Under the pieces are notes generated by a model. It was not told the DNA's origin, did no database searches, and was given only the letters and a program-made list of their open reading frames with translations. The translations under genes were made by a program, and so were the position numbers. A DNA stretch of 64,000 nucleotides from a virus: IMG/VR virus record IMGVR_UViG_3300045988_020586; one strand, written 5' to 3'. Shown here in pieces: positions 5,860 through 43,951 of the stretch; position 1 is the first letter of the stretch; each line of letters opens with the position of its first letter.

Positions 5860-6700
5860 CGGGAGGGTGTGGACGTGAGGGGAGTCGACAAAATCTTCAA
5901 GTTCATTGCAACTATTCCACTCTGCTCCACGTTATATTTATATGGAACAGATAAAGAAATATATGCAAAACAGAAAGTTAATAACTTTCGTTTGTGATTG
6001 TTGTGGAAAAGAAGCTCAAAAACCTCTTTCCGAATACAACAGAAACAAGAAACTTGGTAGGAAGAATTTTTGTAGTAGAAGTTGTGCAATTCGTTATGCT
6101 AATAAAAATAAATTACATACATTTACAGATAAATGTAGAGAACATCTTTTAAGTATTTGCAACAATCAAATAGACGAATATACCGATTTTAGATATATCC
6201 TTAGAAGTGTCTATAAAAGATTTAAAGAAGTAGATATAGATTTAGAGTATCTAAAACAACTTTGGGAGACACAAAAAGGAATTTGCCCTTATACTGGTAT
6301 AAAATTAAAGCTTCCAACATATAAAAGCCATAACTTCTATTTTGATTGTGCATCTTTAGACAGAATAGATTCTTCTAAAGGCTACGTTAAAGGAAATGTT
6401 CAATTCATATCATTACCTATAAATTATATGAAATCTACTAAATCAGATATTGAAATCAGACAATTTCTTAAACAAATTTCTTCTTACACTTCACATTTCT
6501 GCGAAGATGAGACTATCTCTTCACCTAAAGAGGTGTTGGGCGCTCGAGCTGGTAATTAAGAAGACTATACTTCTCCAGTAGTCGTTGCACTTTCTTGTGG
6601 TGTACCACAAGCTTAGCTCAGGGTTAGCATGAACAATACTAGCTTTGAGCTATTATTGTTTTTAGCCTTCCTTGAATTCACCCAATATGGGCTCGGTAAG
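5860..6700 (+). mobile_element. group I intron-like element carrying an HNH ORF; boundaries and host exons unresolved
   Basis: P7-like GAGACTA 6509-6515 and TAGTC 6579-6583, flanking hairpins CACCT-AAAG-AGGTG and AGAAG/CTTCT. P9-like CTTGTGG-TGTA-CCACAAG 6594-6611. Same layout as the two splicing-competent introns in this window. Confidence 0.35.
5942..6559 (+). CDS. HNH-family homing endonuclease
   Basis: Zn-ribbon-like CDCCGKE...CSRSC at the N-terminus. C-terminal ASLDRIDSSKGYVKGNVQFIS motif typical of phage HNH endonucleases. ATG at 5942 (the track ORF begins at 5906). No in-frame TAG. Confidence 0.75.
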   Translation: MEQIKKYMQNRKLITFVCDCCGKEAQKPLSEYNRNKKLGRKNFCSRSCAIRYANKNKLHTFTDKCREHLLSICNNQIDEYTDFRYILRSVYKRFKEVDIDLEYLKQLWETQKGICPYTGIKLKLPTYKSHNFYFDCASLDRIDSSKGYVKGNVQFISLPINYMKSTKSDIEIRQFLKQISSYTSHFCEDETISSPKEVLGARAGN

Positions 6701-6897
6701 AACCCCTGTCCAAACAGATTATTTCATACACACTGTACATTTGTTTTGTAAATGTCCTGATGATCAGTCAGAACATTTGATTTAAACCACTTTAGGTGCG
6801 TTCTAAGGCATTTTTGCGACACTTGTGGTTAATTACTCCACTCGGTGACATACTCTGCCTCAGAATGCATTAGAACATGGTTGAAAATATATAGGAA

Positions 6898-6925
6898 TCC
6901 TCATGATACGAAGATACTTAGAGGG
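6898..6925. repeat. hairpin family A copy 1 (loop core TGATACGAAGATACTT)
   Basis: Stem TCCTC/GAGGG (one G-U); 16-mer at 6904-6919. Confidence 0.55.
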
Positions 6926-7065
6926 CTATATTCAGCATTTTTGATACATTTTGCAGGGTTCGATTAACTTTCTCAGAGCAACCAAATCTCCCCGATACAA
7001 AGATACGCACAAAACATATTGTTTGATCTACTGTCCCAATTTATTGTGTGGGTTCACATCTCTTC

Positions 7066-7098
7066 TTCTCATCGTGATACGAAGATACTTGATGAGAA
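7066..7098. repeat. hairpin family A copy 2 (loop GTGATACGAAGATACTT)
   Basis: Perfect 8-bp stem TTCTCATC/GATGAGAA; 16-mer at 7075-7090. Confidence 0.65.
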
Positions 7099-7167
7099 TG
7101 TTAATTCATTCTGAGATTCCTTCACTGTCTCGTCCCTCGGGACCTCCTGTAGTACTTGAGAATCTGT

Positions 7168-7192
7168 GTACGTGATACGAAGATACTTGTAC
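7168..7192. repeat. hairpin family A copy 3 (loop GTGATACGAAGATACTT)
   Basis: 4-bp stem GTAC/GTAC; 16-mer at 7173-7188. Lies 12 nt beyond the 3' end of gene 7204-7698. Confidence 0.5.
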
Positions 7193-7203
7193 TAGAAGAA
7201 GAA

Positions 7204-13253: not shown

Positions 13254-13370
13254 TGAGGTCTATTCGCGCTTTGAGTAATGAATCAGACTACACCATGATG
13301 CAACATGTGTAGTTTCGTCTAGGTCTCATCAGTGATGATTTTAGACTCTCCCTAGCTGAGTTTAAATAAA

Positions 13371-21174: not shown

Positions 21175-22077
21175 ATGGAAAATAAAATATATAAACTCTC
21201 AGACGAACAGTTTGTTGAGTTACTCAAGAAAAGTTCAACAATATCTGAAGTGTTGTTTAAACTTGGTTATACAGTTAAAGGAAACTCTTGGGGATATTCC
21301 CAAGTAAAAAGAAGAATGGATGATCTGAATTTAGACTATTCTATATTCAAAGGCAAATCAGCTGTTATAAAAACAACCAAGTTAAACAATGTAAAGAAGG
21401 AAGATATACTAAAGAAAAATTGTAGGCATCAGCGTACAGTACTAAGGAGATACGTTATTAAAAATAATTTAATCCCATACAAATGCGCGATATGCGGATG
21501 CACCGAATGGCAAGGAAAAACATTAAGCTTGGAACTTGATCATATAAATGGTGTAAACAATGACAATAGATTAGAAAACCTTAGGTTTTTATGCCCTAAT
21601 TGTCATAGTCAAACTTCAACGTATGGAAGCAGAAATCAGCAACTTAATAGTTCTGAATATGATATCCCAGACGATTTAAGAAAGATGGTTGAAGAGAAGT
21701 ATGATGAAGTTAAAAGTGTTAAAAGAGTATCATCAATACTTGGAATACGAAGATGCGTTGTTACAAAAATAGTTAATGAATCAGGTCAAAAACATTCTAA
21801 TCAAAAGTATATAATAAGGTACGATAAAGATTGGAATGAGCTCGCAAGATACGGTTCTCTCGTAGAAGCTGCCAAAGCTTTAATAGAAGCTAATGAAGTT
21901 AAAACAAAGCGAGTAAAGACTTGTACTAGAACTATAATGTACAATAAAGATAATTTTTGGTTGAACAGTCATTGGAAAATATTGGATGGTAGCGGGATAA
22001 TAAATAATCCGCTATTAGAACCTTCTCTAATTGACTCGGAAGACACTGTTGACGAGGCGCAAGCGAAAGCAGCGTGA
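21175..22077 (+). CDS. HNH homing endonuclease with C-terminal NUMOD/IENR-like DNA-binding region
   Basis: 300 aa with LELDHINGVNNDNRLENLRFLCPNCH. No in-frame TAG. The 3' end overlaps a group I core. Confidence 0.85.
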   Translation: MENKIYKLSDEQFVELLKKSSTISEVLFKLGYTVKGNSWGYSQVKRRMDDLNLDYSIFKGKSAVIKTTKLNNVKKEDILKKNCRHQRTVLRRYVIKNNLIPYKCAICGCTEWQGKTLSLELDHINGVNNDNRLENLRFLCPNCHSQTSTYGSRNQQLNSSEYDIPDDLRKMVEEKYDEVKSVKRVSSILGIRRCVVTKIVNESGQKHSNQKYIIRYDKDWNELARYGSLVEAAKALIEANEVKTKRVKTCTRTIMYNKDNFWLNSHWKILDGSGIINNPLLEPSLIDSEDTVDEAQAKAA

Positions 22078-22194: not shown

Positions 22195-22446
22195 ATGGAG
22201 TTAAAATTTAAGAGACTTGAGGACGAAGCGGTCCTCCCTATTCGTAGCACAGAAGGTGCTGCAGGAATTGATTTGACATGCATTAAGATTGATACAGCTC
22301 TTAATGAAGCAAATCAGCTAATGTTGGTTTACCATACAGGATTGGCAGTTGAGATTCCTGCCGGATATGTTGGTTTACTTATACCACGCTCTAGTATTTG
22401 GAAGAAATCATTATGGCTTACTGATAATGTTGGAGTGATTGACGCT
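22195..22446 (+). CDS. dut: dUTPase, exon 1
   Basis: Motif I AGIDL, motif II IPRSS, and the first half of motif III GVIDA. The standard-code ORF then runs into the intron and stops at 22467. Confidence 0.8.
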
Positions 22447-23375
22447 AGAATATTGATACGTTATTGAGTATCAATGCAACCAACTCTATTCGCATATCGT
22501 TATGATGATATAACTAAACACAAAATATCATGATAACAAAAATTTGCAAACAATGTGGTAAGGAATTTGATGTACCAGAATACAGAAAGGATGCTAAATA
22601 CTGCTGTGACGAATGTAAACACAAAGCACTGCATGGAGATTTAAATTGTGAGTGTGAGGTTTGTGGCAAGAAATTCCACTTAAAACCATACGCTCTTAAA
22701 AAGAGTAAACATCATACATGTAGCCGCGAGTGTTTAAACAAACTTAAAAGTACATTATATAAAGGTGAAGGAAATCATCAATATGGTCTAAAAGGCGATA
22801 AGAATTCATCTTTCAAAGGAAACGTAATCCTGCGTAAGAACAATGGACTAATCGAGAGAATGATCTACAATCCTAGACACCCATACGCTGATCGTAATGG
22901 TAGGATTAAGGAACACAGATTAATAGTTGAGCAGAATTACAAAATGTTTGACGATAAATACTTTGAAGTTATAAACGGAGAGCATTATTTAAAGAAGAAT
23001 GTAGATGTACATCACATTAACTTTAATCATAACGATAATAGAATAGAAAACCTAATTCCCTTGACTAGAGCGGAACATACAAAGCTTCATAACCAAAATG
23101 AAGTTATATACAGAAATGAGAAGGGAATGATAATTGGTGTCTTAAAACAGGGTGAATTGCTGGAAAAGCCTGAAGAGGTCAATCAGCAGCCAAGCTTGGG
23201 TAGTGATACCCTTGAAGGTTCAGAGACTAACAGCCGAGTCTTACGAGACAGTAATGCTGACACGAGTGCCCTGCCCGGAAACGGTGAAGATATAGTCCGA
23301 TCTACTGATAACAAAATAAACAGTAGAAATATAGAGATAAAGAGCTCTATAGATTAACAACTCCTAATTTTGTTG
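22447..23375 (+). mobile_element. group I intron in dUTPase gene (junctions +/- a few nt)
   Basis: Splits motif III GVIDA|DYRGEI. Exon 1 ends in T and the intron ends in G. Core strings CAGAGACTA 23221-23229 and GATATAGTCC 23289-23298; GNRA hairpin CCG-GAAA-CGG. Contains an HNH ORF. Confidence 0.7.
22530..23357 (+). CDS. intron-encoded HNH homing endonuclease
   Basis: 275 aa. Cys-rich N-terminus and VHHINFNHNDNRIENLIPLTRAEHTKLH. No in-frame TAG. Confidence 0.85.
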   Translation: MITKICKQCGKEFDVPEYRKDAKYCCDECKHKALHGDLNCECEVCGKKFHLKPYALKKSKHHTCSRECLNKLKSTLYKGEGNHQYGLKGDKNSSFKGNVILRKNNGLIERMIYNPRHPYADRNGRIKEHRLIVEQNYKMFDDKYFEVINGEHYLKKNVDVHHINFNHNDNRIENLIPLTRAEHTKLHNQNEVIYRNEKGMIIGVLKQGELLEKPEEVNQQPSLGSDTLEGSETNSRVLRDSNADTSALPGNGEDIVRSTDNKINSRNIEIKSSID

Positions 23376-23669
23376 GATTATAGAGGAGAGATTATAGCTA
23401 TAATGAAAGCCACAACAGATGTGGTTCCTGCTATTTATAAGCAGGGCGAGCGCTTCTGTCAGTTGGTCATAGTTCCGGTGCCAGAATACGAGGTTACAGA
23501 AGTGTCTGAGCTTTCTGATACAAAACGAGGCGAGAATGGCTTTGGTTCAACTGGTACCGATAATAAGGAAGTTAGCGCAGCTGCGGGAACTGAGGCACAG
23601 GCTAGCGAACAGCCACAGTCCGTACCAGAGCAAGCGGCGGCACAAGATGGTGCTGAGGTAGGTGAGTGA
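23376..23669 (+). CDS. dut: dUTPase, exon 2
   Basis: DYRGEI (motif III), GERFCQLV (motif IV), RGENGFGSTG (motif V), then an Ala/Gln/Glu-rich tail; TGA stop. Confidence 0.8.
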   Translation, partial: DYRGEIIAIMKATTDVVPAIYKQGERFCQLVIVPVPEYEVTEVSELSDTKRGENGFGSTGTDNKEVSAAAGTEAQASEQPQSVPEQAAAQDGAEVGE

Positions 23670-41537: not shown

Positions 41538-41921
41538 ATGAATAATTCAAGTTCTTTATTAAATAATCTTCAGCTCTACCGTGGTAAGCGTTTTGCTGAC
41601 TTGGTAGACGAAAACATGATTGCTAATGCAATGCTTACAAAGCCTCATGAAGTAGCAGGCTTGTTGTCATTGGTTTTTGGTACAAAGGATGATGGTATTT
41701 CAACTACCATCGACTTGTTAACTGGTGGTCTTGGTTCAACCATGACTATCGAAAACAGAGAGTATGAGTGGTCTGTAATGATTGATGCTGACCACGCTGT
41801 TAATATCCGCTATGCTAAGTGGAATGGCAAGGAGATCACTCCTAAGTCAATTACAGACGGTTTGACCCCAGGTATTAATAATACTCCTATTTATCTTGGT
41901 CTTGAGGAGAAATGGTTCGGT
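41538..41921 (+). CDS. major capsid protein, exon 1
   Basis: 128 codons ending …LGLEEKWFG. The track ORF continues only 6 codons into the intron. Confidence 0.75.
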
Positions 41922-42802
41922 GGGTTCTATAGCGCATAACCTGTGCCGCCTTTTATAGTAATATAAATTGAAAAATCCAGAGAATTGCTGGAAACTCCTA
42001 AAGAATTTTATACCCTAGAGTTATAAATAAAATTATAGATATATGAATAATATAAAAAATGGACAATCAGCAGCCGAGCAAGGCTACTAGATGAAAGACA
42101 TACCGGGATGGGAAGGTCTTTACGCATGTACAACACATGGTGATATTTGGTCATATAGAAGTGATAAGTTTTTATCGCCAAGTAAAAATAAAAGAGGTTA
42201 TCTACACGTTACTTTTACAAAAGATGGCAAAAGATACGATTATAGAGTCAATAGACTTGTAGCTATGACATTTCTAGATAACCCAAACAATTTGCCACAA
42301 GTAAACCATATAGATGGAAACAAATTGAATAATTATCTATCTAATCTAGAATGGTGCACACCAGAATATAATATACAACACGGAAAGGAACACGGATTGT
42401 TTAAAGGACATTGCTTTAATCCTCCAATACATACAAAAGATGGTCCACAAGTTGCATATGTATTTACTAATGTTTATAATGGGGCGCAGTTCACCATATA
42501 TGGTTTTAAAGCTTTGAGGAAGCAATTTAGAATAAGTGGTTATACTTATGGGTTGATTCAAAAACATGCGAACACAGGAGACTATATTAAAGCTGGATTG
42601 CTTAAAGGTCTTCGTGTTGACAAAGTAGACTTGAAGGTTCATCGACTAACCGCTAACCACGGTGTAGGGTCAAGTGACCCGAAGTACTGGAAACCCTTTC
42701 TTTAGGGTTGTGATATAGTCAATTCTTCATCGAAAGATGAAGCTGCTAGCGAGAATGCCATAGCTAGCGATTCGGAATTAACGACTCCGAGTGAATAAAA
42801 AG
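41922..42802 (+). mobile_element. group I intron in the major capsid protein gene (junctions +/- ~15 nt)
   Basis: Frame shifts from 0 to 2 across it. Exon 1 ends in T and the intron ends in G. Core strings CGACTAA 42643-42649 and GATATAGTC 42712-42720; GNRA hairpin CTTCATC-GAAA-GATGAAG 42725-42742. Contains an HNH ORF. Confidence 0.7.
42091..42705 (+). CDS. intron-encoded HNH/NUMOD4-type homing endonuclease
   Basis: 204 aa. IPGWEGLYACTTHGDIWS (NUMOD4-like) and VNHIDGNKLNNYLSNLEWCTPEYN (HNH_3-like). The stop codon is TAG. Confidence 0.85.
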   Translation: MKDIPGWEGLYACTTHGDIWSYRSDKFLSPSKNKRGYLHVTFTKDGKRYDYRVNRLVAMTFLDNPNNLPQVNHIDGNKLNNYLSNLEWCTPEYNIQHGKEHGLFKGHCFNPPIHTKDGPQVAYVFTNVYNGAQFTIYGFKALRKQFRISGYTYGLIQKHANTGDYIKAGLLKGLRVDKVDLKVHRLTANHGVGSSDPKYWKPFL

Positions 42803-43951
42803 CCAGGCGCTATTTTGGCATTTGACAACGTAAACTTCCAGGTACGTGTAAACGGTACTCCATATCAGGATGGTAGCACATGGGTATATGAGTGCTACGT
42901 AGCAGAAGGCTTCCAGGGTTCTTATATTCCTTGTGAGTATTTGCTCCCAGGTCGTCAGGTAGATCGTATCGGTTCTGCATACGAGGAGTACAGTGATGAG
43001 GCAGATATCATCAACTATCAGACTCCATTTAAGATGCGTAATAGCTTGATGACTATGCGTCTTACTTACGATATCACCGGTGATGCTTACTCTACAGTAT
43101 TGGCTATCGCTTTGACTGATCCTGAGACAGGCAAGAAGTCTTATTTGTGGTCTGACTATCAGTATTGGAAGGCTCTTCGTGAGTGGAAGAAGAGAGAGGA
43201 GAAGCAGTTGCTGTTCGCTCACTCTAACCGTAATGCAGATGGTACTTATAATCTGAAGGGTACTAATGGTCGTTTCGTTCCAATCTCTGCAGGTTTGTTC
43301 GAGCAGATTGCTCCAGCTAACGTACGTTACTATACAAAGCTGACTACAGAGTTGTTTGAGGATTACCTGTTCGACCTCTGCTATAATATCATCGGTACTA
43401 ACGAGCGTAAGTTTGTTGCCTTGACTGGTGAGATGGGTATCCGTGAGTTCGACCGTATCTTGAAGGAGAAGGCAGCTAGCTTCAATATGATTGACACACA
43501 CTTCATTACAGGTTCTGGTCAGGATCTGAAGTTGGGTGGTCAGTTCACAACTTACACTATGACTAATGGTATTGAGTTGACAGTTAAGCGTTGCGCTATG
43601 TTTGATAACATGGAGATGTTCCGTCAGCTTCACCCATTGACAGGTAAGCCATTGATGTCTTACACATTCTTGTTCGTTGATCTTGGTCGTCGTGATGGTC
43701 AGGCTAACATCGTTAAGGTATGTCGTAAGGGTCGTGAGTTCGTACAGTGGTGTACTGGTGGTTCTGTATTGCCAAATGGTTATGCAAACAACATCAATAC
43801 TATGCGTTCTAACAGCCGTGATGGTTACCAGGTACACTTCCTTGGTGAAGAGGGTATCATGTTGAGAAACCCATTGTCATGTGGTATCTTGTACTGTGAT
43901 GCTGAAGACCAGGAGTCTATTGCAGTTGAGAATAGAGCAGCAGAGCTCTAA
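42803..43951 (+). CDS. major capsid protein, exon 2
   Basis: 382 codons with no in-frame TAG. Strong codon bias gives a 357-aa antisense shadow ORF. Position after the scaffold-like gene. Sequence resembles crAss-like MCPs from memory. Confidence 0.75.
   Translation, partial: PGAILAFDNVNFQVRVNGTPYQDGSTWVYECYVAEGFQGSYIPCEYLLPGRQVDRIGSAYEEYSDEADIINYQTPFKMRNSLMTMRLTYDITGDAYSTVLAIALTDPETGKKSYLWSDYQYWKALREWKKREEKQLLFAHSNRNADGTYNLKGTNGRFVPISAGLFEQIAPANVRYYTKLTTELFEDYLFDLCYNIIGTNERKFVALTGEMGIREFDRILKEKAASFNMIDTHFITGSGQDLKLGGQFTTYTMTNGIELTVKRCAMFDNMEMFRQLHPLTGKPLMSYTFLFVDLGRRDGQANIVKVCRKGREFVQWCTGGSVLPNGYANNINTMRSNSRDGYQVHFLGEEGIMLRNPLSCGILYCDAEDQESIAVENRAAEL

Follow-up and report, generated by a model that had tools for sequence, protein, structure and literature searches.

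A probable mobile group I intron with an HNH endonuclease gene interrupts the major capsid gene of a crAss phage resembling Burzaovirus

The 64,000 nucleotides (nt) of IMG/VR virus record IMGVR_UViG_3300045988_020586 analyzed here, referred to below as the window, come from a Burzaovirus-like crAss phage (Suoliviridae, "Delta" group) in which the gene for a crAss-type major capsid protein (MCP) is broken by an insert. The locus raises the question of what this insert is and whether the phage makes one capsid protein from the two pieces or two. A megablast search against phage records returned the Burzaovirus phages cr124_1 and cr7_1 (Suoliviridae, Oafivirinae). Each shares 96% identity with the window, over two segments that cover 65% of the query. 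Between approximately 41.5 and 44 kb the plus strand contains three open reading frames (ORFs), at 41538-41939 (133 amino acids, aa), 42091-42705 (204 aa) and 42791-43951 (386 aa). An earlier inspection of the letters without database searches (the sequence-only reading) had noted that the capsid ORF stops shortly after ...EKWFG and resumes about 880 nt later in another frame, and had proposed that a group I intron with an HNH/NUMOD4 endonuclease ORF lies in the gap. The description of the reading frames proved correct: the ORF at 41538-41939 reads ...EKWFG, then GFYSA, then TAA, and capsid sequence begins again at 42803. We conclude with high confidence that 41922-42802 is a mobile, HNH-encoding group I intron in the MCP gene, and the features concerned are as follows.

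41538..41921, plus strand: MCP exon 1, 128 codons, ending ...EKWFG, with U41921 as last base (the -1 U); Crass_capsid profile positions 2-120
41922..42802, plus strand: predicted group I intron, 881 nt, IA-like, P1-P10 with P7.1/P7.2 and P9.1/P9.2; G42802 is the omega-G
41937..41939, plus strand: TAA closing the exon-1 frame, five codons inside the intron, in the P1 loop
42091..42705, plus strand: homing-endonuclease ORF, 204 aa, NUMOD4 and HNH, starting in the P6a loop
42803..43951, plus strand: MCP exon 2, 382 codons and stop, in the other frame, starting PGAILAFD; Crass_capsid profile positions 121-495

The MCP gene of cr124_1 and of cr7_1 is a single 511-codon gene without interruption. 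Compared base by base with these two alleles, the window is collinear up to 41921 and again from 42803 with a sliding ambiguity of zero, which fixes the insert as 41922-42802 (881 nt), the junction as T41921 and C42803, and the last intron base as G42802. This is the junction that had been proposed by eye, and it obeys the U/omega-G rule. Since the length of the insert is 3n+2, the frame changes between the exons. Both capsid pieces were assigned to major head protein in the PHROGs, the middle ORF was assigned to HNH endonuclease, and the Pfam Crass_capsid (PF23898) matches of the two exons abut exactly, one ending at profile position 120 and the other beginning at 121. The predicted spliced junction consists of GAGGAGAAATGGTTCGGT followed directly by CCAGGCGCTATTTTGGCA and gives the joined peptide ...EEKWFGPGAILAF..., with WFGPGAILAF running across the junction; the intronless site of cr124_1 reads GAAGAGAAGTGGTTTGGTCCAGGTGCAATTCTTGCA. 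The predicted spliced product (...GGU-CCA..., the hyphen marking the junction) is a protein of 510 aa that differs from the cr124_1 MCP at three residues and is without the C-terminal alanine of the latter, and it produces one full-length Crass_capsid match (2-495 of 496, 696.9 bits, E = 1.5e-209). Approximately 65 uninterrupted homologues from viral contigs, taken from a list of the best 80 relatives that favours uninterrupted genes, have no added codons at the site (gap = 0). Two other in-frame junctions, one with exon 2 starting from 42794 and one with exon 1 extending to 41930, had earlier been left open and are excluded by these homologues.

When viral contigs were scanned for a 16-mer from the intron core, 13 loci turned up that carry a homologue of the intron at the identical codon, and the omega-G is kept in all homologues. 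A similar scan with the 14-mer GAGAATTGCTGGAA (J3/4-P4) returned, among the matches listed, mostly unrelated sequences together with unrelated group I introns, and it was dropped as a source for the same-site alignment. The gathering score of the Rfam group I intron model, RF00028, is 50 bits. An intron without an ORF at the same site in contig L009, 342 nt long and with P6a closed by a 6-nt loop, matched the full model at 74.9 bits, and a 405-nt intron in contig L010, in which 476 nt of the ORF have been lost through a natural internal deletion, matched it end to end at 59.6 bits. The ORF-deleted construct of L010 (the ribozyme with 12 nt of exon per side) is 95.5% identical to that of the window, and the ORF-deleted cores of L013, L016 and L017, which are independent viral contigs of approximately 100 kb from other samples, are 99.2-99.5% identical to the core of the window. 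A local scan of the window copy itself gave two partial RF00028 matches, at 41986-42117 (P4-P6, 17.1 bits) and at 42497-42742 (P6'-P9, 29.2 bits, E = 2.8e-5).

In order to compare structures, 11 ORF-deleted same-site introns were aligned with 12 nt of exon on each side. RNAalifold recovered P2, P3, P4, P5, P5a, P5b, P6, P6a, P7.1, P7.2, P8, P9, P9.1, P9.2 and P10 unaided, and the final 89-pair model consists of this set plus P1 and the P7 pseudoknot, minus one spurious hairpin. Across its 17 helices 99.6% of the cells are paired and compensatory changes are present in 35 of the 89 pairs, a result that was reached by none of 500 shuffles. As a control the 3' partners were slid by 1-3 columns, which left 31-38% paired and at most four compensatory pairs. 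The window copy has each of the 17 helices intact, and P3, P5, P6a, P7.1, P7.2 and P8 covary. The strings that had first suggested a group I core are all present, with CGACTAA forming the 5' strand of P7 (42643-42649), GATATAGTC forming J8/7 and the 3' strand of P7 (42712-42720), the GAAA-capped hairpin being P9, and the further P9-like hairpins being P9.1 and P9.2. The helices are listed below.

41918..41948, plus strand: P1, exon CGGU 41918-41921 with guide GCCG 41945-41948; the loop consists of a GGUU/AACC extension and the P10 partner
41930..41935, plus strand: P10, UAGCGC with exon-2 GCGCUA 42807-42812; two of six pairs compensatory, 96.8% of cells paired
41952..41967, plus strand: P2 hairpin, UUUAUA-GUAA-UAUAAA with a GNRA-type loop; five of six pairs compensatory
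41976..41980, plus strand: P3, UCCAG with CUGGA 42687-42691, pairing across the ORF; three of five pairs compensatory (CUCUG/CAGAG in L009)
41986..42072, plus strand: P4, 41986-91 with 42067-72; in an RF00028 partial match region; invariant
41996..42063, plus strand: P5 (41996-98 with 42061-63), P5a (42004-10 with 42028-34) and P5b (42040-44 with 42050-54); P5 covaries
42073..42638, plus strand: P6, GCC 42073-75 with GGU 42636-38
42079..42633, plus strand: P6a, CAAG 42079-82 with CUUG 42630-33; the loop contains the endonuclease ORF
42644..42720, plus strand: P7, GACUA 42644-48 with UAGUC 42716-20, in the 3' half of the catalytic core
42649..42663 and 42667..42680, plus strand: P7.1 and P7.2, one compensatory pair each, 100% paired
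42687..42709, plus strand: P3' (42687-91) and P8 (42692-42709), followed by J8/7 GUGAUA; 3' half of the core, within the RF00028 match 42497-42742
42725..42742, plus strand: P9, GAAA loop, one compensatory pair
42745..42768 and 42770..42792, plus strand: P9.1 and P9.2, three and five compensatory pairs, respectively

The helices that contact the exons are among the informative cases. At the splice site, U41921.G41945 forms a wobble that does not vary among the 11 sequences, and in L010 and L020 the pair C41918-G41948 is replaced by U-A (UGGU/GCCA), so that a synonymous change in the exon is offset in the guide. A different P1 register that had been picked by eye, GGUGG/CCGCC, was dropped, as CGGU/GCCG is both conserved and covarying. 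Exon wobble positions in P10 likewise covary with the P1 loop. The presence of P7.1/P7.2 between P7 and P3', together with P9.1/P9.2, gives the predicted structure the look of a phage IA-type intron.

The 204-aa ORF passed the Pfam cut-offs for both of the domains that had been assigned to it by eye, with 29.8 bits to NUMOD4 (PF07463; cut-off 23.4) and 27.1 bits to HNH_3 (PF13392; cut-off 24.8), and matched PHROG 59 at 1.3e-44. An ungapped alignment (E = 2.5e-15) pairs its residues 2-103 with I-HmuI (PDB 1U3E) residues 4-105. No solved structure, I-HmuI included, shows detectable similarity to the C-terminal half (residues 104-204). H73 and N94 of the window ORF align with H75 and N96 of I-HmuI, which we take to be the catalytic residues of that enzyme and hence of this one. 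The last approximately 25 codons of the ORF, from about 42630, overlap P6a', P6', P7, P7.1, P7.2, P3' and part of P8, where the ORF ends with a TAG. An in-frame ATG at 42045 also lies upstream of the ATG at 42091, parted from it solely by the TAG at 42088-42090; a suppressor tRNA that would let the ORF start at 42045 was sought among the three tRNAs of the window and none was found. In the RefSeq record of the related phage cr131_1 (L002) the HNH coding sequence (CDS) at 1990-2742 has in-frame TAGs and extends beyond the position of the window ORF's stop, which is consistent with TAG recoding or with an over-extended annotation.

The intron is polymorphic in the population. In addition to the uninterrupted genes, the list of best relatives contains about 15 intron-bearing contigs, with full, ORF-remnant and ORF-less forms. 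Burzaovirus-like alleles whose exons are more than 92% identical include empty sites (17 analyzed), full introns (the window, L013, L016 and L017) and the ORF-deleted intron of L010, while more distant relatives include the ORF-less L009 and also L006 and L011, in which ATA replaces the ATG start of the ORF. An initial analysis of co-conversion in the flanking exons was confounded by a second insertion in L013, L016 and L010 and was repeated on the 1020 nt shared by the alleles. Five sites in these 1020 exon positions separate the intron-plus from the intronless alleles, and four of the five are exon-2 positions +6, +9, +13 and +15, all of them synonymous. When the window was compared with each intronless allele, 6-8 of 33-61 differences fell within 16 nt on either side of the junction (32 nt; binomial P approximately 2e-5 to 7e-3), and in comparisons of the window with the other intron-plus alleles no enrichment of junction-proximal substitutions was found. 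Positions +6 and +9 fall in P10, where the substitutions strengthen the pairing, and +13 and +15 do not. This pattern fits a short co-conversion tract, selection on P10, immunity of the endonuclease site, or a mix of these. The presence/absence polymorphism, the decayed-ORF allele and the exon-2 substitutions linked to the intron together indicate probable homing.

Two further insertions were seen in related MCP genes. The near-identical Burzaovirus MCP genes of L210 (approximately 1636-2505) and L211 (IMG/VR contigs 3300045988_066459 and 3300013947_000026) carry a different group I intron of 870 nt with a divergent HNH ORF, located 5 nt upstream of the site in the window (between TGGT and TCGG, as against between TGGTTCGGT and CC). 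The guide of that intron, GCCAC, pairs with GUGGU, and by eye its P4-P6 region is near-identical to that of the window intron, with P1-P3, P7-P9 and the ORF being different. This suggests that mosaic introns may be competing for neighbouring sites. The second MCP insertion mentioned above is about 978 nt long and lies at the window-equivalent position of about 43440 (43438/43445) in L016 (2111-3088), L010 (4504-5481) and L013 (from 8285); the window is without it. Neither L016 nor L210, relatives with these other ORF-bearing MCP insertions, gave any match in an Rfam scan at the gathering threshold.

By analogy with established group I chemistry, the capsid pre-mRNA would fold into a ribozyme in which the guide GCCG (41945-48) and the exon end CGGU form P1, with U41921.G41945 as the wobble pair that marks the splice site. 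A free guanosine docked in P7 would attack after U41921, P10 (41930-35 with 42807-12) would position the 3' exon, and omega-G42802 would be the leaving nucleotide at exon ligation, the outcome being ...GGU-CCA... and the 510-aa capsid protein. As had been suggested on first inspection, we infer with good reason that virion production would depend on RNA splicing. The I-HmuI-type NUMOD4/HNH enzyme would presumably nick or cut intronless capsid alleles of co-infecting relatives, and repair would then transfer the intron and a short adjoining piece of exon to these alleles. It is possible to speculate further, although we hold it tentative and on balance unlikely, that the intron serves as both a weapon and a timer in the competition of co-infecting Burzaovirus strains. 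In the first role, the capsid gene of rivals that have no intron, or a different one, would be cleaved by the HNH enzyme and flanking markers would be dragged along, as in the "beyond homing" marker exclusion of SPO1/SP82; the mosaic intron of L210 and L211, 5 nt upstream and with a retargeted guide, lends some support to it. For the second role, since the ORF is read through ribozyme elements P6'-P8, translation of the endonuclease and splicing of the capsid mRNA would be mutually exclusive, and this could amount to a built-in switch for late capsid production.

Several points weigh against a mobile group I intron and have to be set beside the evidence above. A scan of the whole window at the gathering threshold gave no RF00028 match at 41922-42802, though RF00028 was found elsewhere in the window, and the two partial matches of the local scan are both below the gathering score; the search with RF00028 that the sequence-only reading had proposed passed the threshold for L009 and L010 and stayed below it for the window copy, whose own score fell short because the ORF of approximately 530 nt in L6a splits the model. 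The 11 aligned sequences are kin, several of them near-identical, and P4, P6 and P7 show no variation among them, so that covariation is uninformative for these three helices. A minimum free energy fold of the single ORF-deleted RNA missed the long-range helices, P3/P7 included, and its stability exceeded that of shuffles by a modest margin (z = -2.46), so that we relied on the comparative evidence. The +6 and +9 substitutions could stem from selection for P10 pairing and not from co-conversion. Finally, we infer the catalytic splicing of this intron from its likeness to characterized group I introns. In spite of these points, the covariation in 11 homologues and the scores of the same-site introns of L009 and L010 led us to uphold the assignment to group I that had been made by eye.

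Among the alternatives, the one that survives best accepts the group I intron and holds that its splicing in vivo is not autonomous, requiring as helper the intron's own endonuclease in the role of a maturase, or a chaperone of the host or the phage, or depending on ribosome traffic, that is, on translation of exon 1 to the TAA at 41937 or on silence of the HNH ORF. The overlap of the last codons of the ORF with the catalytic core would put translation and folding in competition, the exon-1 frame ends in the P1 loop 6 nt ahead of the guide, and P1 is short, with four canonical pairs plus the extension. Coupling of translation and splicing is documented for the td and nrdB introns of T4, and some intron endonucleases double as maturases. 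However, no feature of the sequence requires a cofactor, and the ORF-less intron of L009 persists at the same site, from which it follows that the endonuclease is not an obligatory maturase. We consider a dependence of this kind to be rather improbable.

A second alternative is that the capsid is truly split, with 41538-41939 and 42791-43951 made as two polypeptides, the second starting from the GTG at 42791 (MNKK-PGAIL...), and with the insert being a selfish endonuclease cassette. This would agree with the RefSeq annotation of the cr131_1 homologue, which comprises two "major head protein" CDS and an HNH CDS, and with the in-frame GTG or ATG followed by AATAAAAAG that precedes exon 2 in most homologues. 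However, the break would fall within one contiguous Pfam domain, and phages that are 96% identical have a single gene; separate genes in the homologues would have spoken for the split, and close relatives show one uninterrupted gene. A complete covarying ribozyme that includes the P1 and P10 pairings with the exons would have no reason to be conserved without splicing, and the conserved (A/G)TGAATAAAAAG is present in the ORF-less L009 too, where it ends in the omega-G. We therefore regard two separate polypeptides as highly improbable, and the locus is best annotated as one joined CDS (41538..41921, 42803..43951), an intron and a homing-endonuclease gene.

It is just as hard to believe that the intron is a decaying, splicing-defective relic, the genome being chimeric from assembly or that of a variant which is defective or cannot propagate, since the sub-threshold Rfam score of the window copy and the ORF decay in related alleles (the internal deletion of L010, and ATA for ATG in L006 and L011) are opposed by 17 intact helices and a full-length endonuclease ORF with its presumed catalytic His and Asn, by near-identical cores in independent contigs, and by the ORF-based explanation of the low score, the intron of L010 with its natural ORF deletion reaching 59.6 bits. 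An intein and translational bypass were ruled out by the 3n+2 length, the stops in the exon frame and the ribozyme structure.

Two further group I introns in the window lie above the Rfam threshold. One of them (Rfam 6489-6781, minus strand, 81 bits) is part of an 813-nt insert, 6701..5889 on the minus strand, that interrupts the T-loop (between GGGGU and UCGACUCCCC) of a circularly permuted phage gene for transfer-messenger RNA (tmRNA), with exons at approximately 6772-6702 and 5888-5530. The corresponding tmRNA gene of cr124_1 is uninterrupted and 357 nt long. In silico removal of 6701..5889 restores a permuted tmRNA that is recognized by ARAGORN, with the tag GNVNNIVDYTCVA followed by a stop, and the unspliced sequence gave none. 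The sole long ORF in this insert is on the opposite strand (5906-6559, 217 aa) and has zinc-finger and HNH-like motifs with no Pfam match. Group I introns in the T-loop are known from bacterial tmRNA genes. In the tmRNA database paper of 2025, "intron" and "permuted" are two distinct forms of the gene (PMC11915505), so that a phage tmRNA which is permuted and also bears an intron may be novel as a combination. At 6900-7200 on the minus strand, upstream of this gene, there are three copies and a fourth degenerate copy of the motif AAGTATCTTCGTATCA(C/T)G, which may be a promoter or a regulatory repeat.

The other intron (Rfam 23077-23318, plus strand, 65.2 bits) splits a dUTPase gene at 22195-23669 on the plus strand. 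The exon pieces correspond to Pfam dUTPase 2-71 and 71-129 and flank an HNH_3 ORF at 22530-23357, with a free-standing HNH ORF (21175-22077) just upstream in the window; the dUTPase gene is intact in cr124_1. A RAGATH-1 hammerhead match was also found at 13281-13362 on the minus strand (71.9 bits; gathering score 56.3), in a region where the surrounding ORFs are all short.

That the MCP genes of crAss-like phages in the Delta group (Suoliviridae) contain group I introns was reported by Yutin et al. 2021 (Nat Commun, PMC7886860), who detected them via an intron-associated endonuclease domain, and is repeated in a 2023 review (PMC10136315). The intron of the window is thus real but already known as to kind, host gene and phage family, and with both mechanism and occurrence published it opens no new question. 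The passages of Yutin et al. on these introns deal with their presence and their endonuclease domains, and ribozyme structure, exact junctions, ORF-less forms and flank co-conversion are not described in those passages (PMC7886860). To the intron load of the Suoliviridae the window adds a well-resolved example, with an exact junction, a structure map and a short co-conversion/P10 tract, and the alleles capture the full, ORF-decayed, ORF-less and empty-site stages of a homing cycle. It implies that capsid production in a very abundant lineage of human-gut phages would go via RNA splicing. The RefSeq genome of cr131_1 (NC_055902) has a homologous intron with an HNH gene at the identical codon, and its two MCP CDS are annotated with no intron feature.

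The introns in the DNA-polymerase genes of SPO1 and SP82, which encode I-HmuI and I-HmuII, are likewise phage group I introns in an essential gene, and their HNH enzymes have an N-terminal DNA-binding sheet of the NUMOD4 type. They differ from the window in their host gene, which is a DNA polymerase and not a capsid gene, and in belonging to Bacillus phages, whose hosts are of another phylum. The td intron of T4 is of subgroup IA2, and its I-TevI ORF is looped out from P6a. Features that it shares with the window are the IA-type core, P7.1/P7.2 between P7 and P3', additional P9 hairpins, the placement of the endonuclease ORF in the P6a loop, and an exon-frame stop soon after the 5' splice site. 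The two differ in that the td endonuclease is of the GIY-YIG type whereas that of the window is HNH, and in that the 3' end of the window ORF runs through the core to P8.

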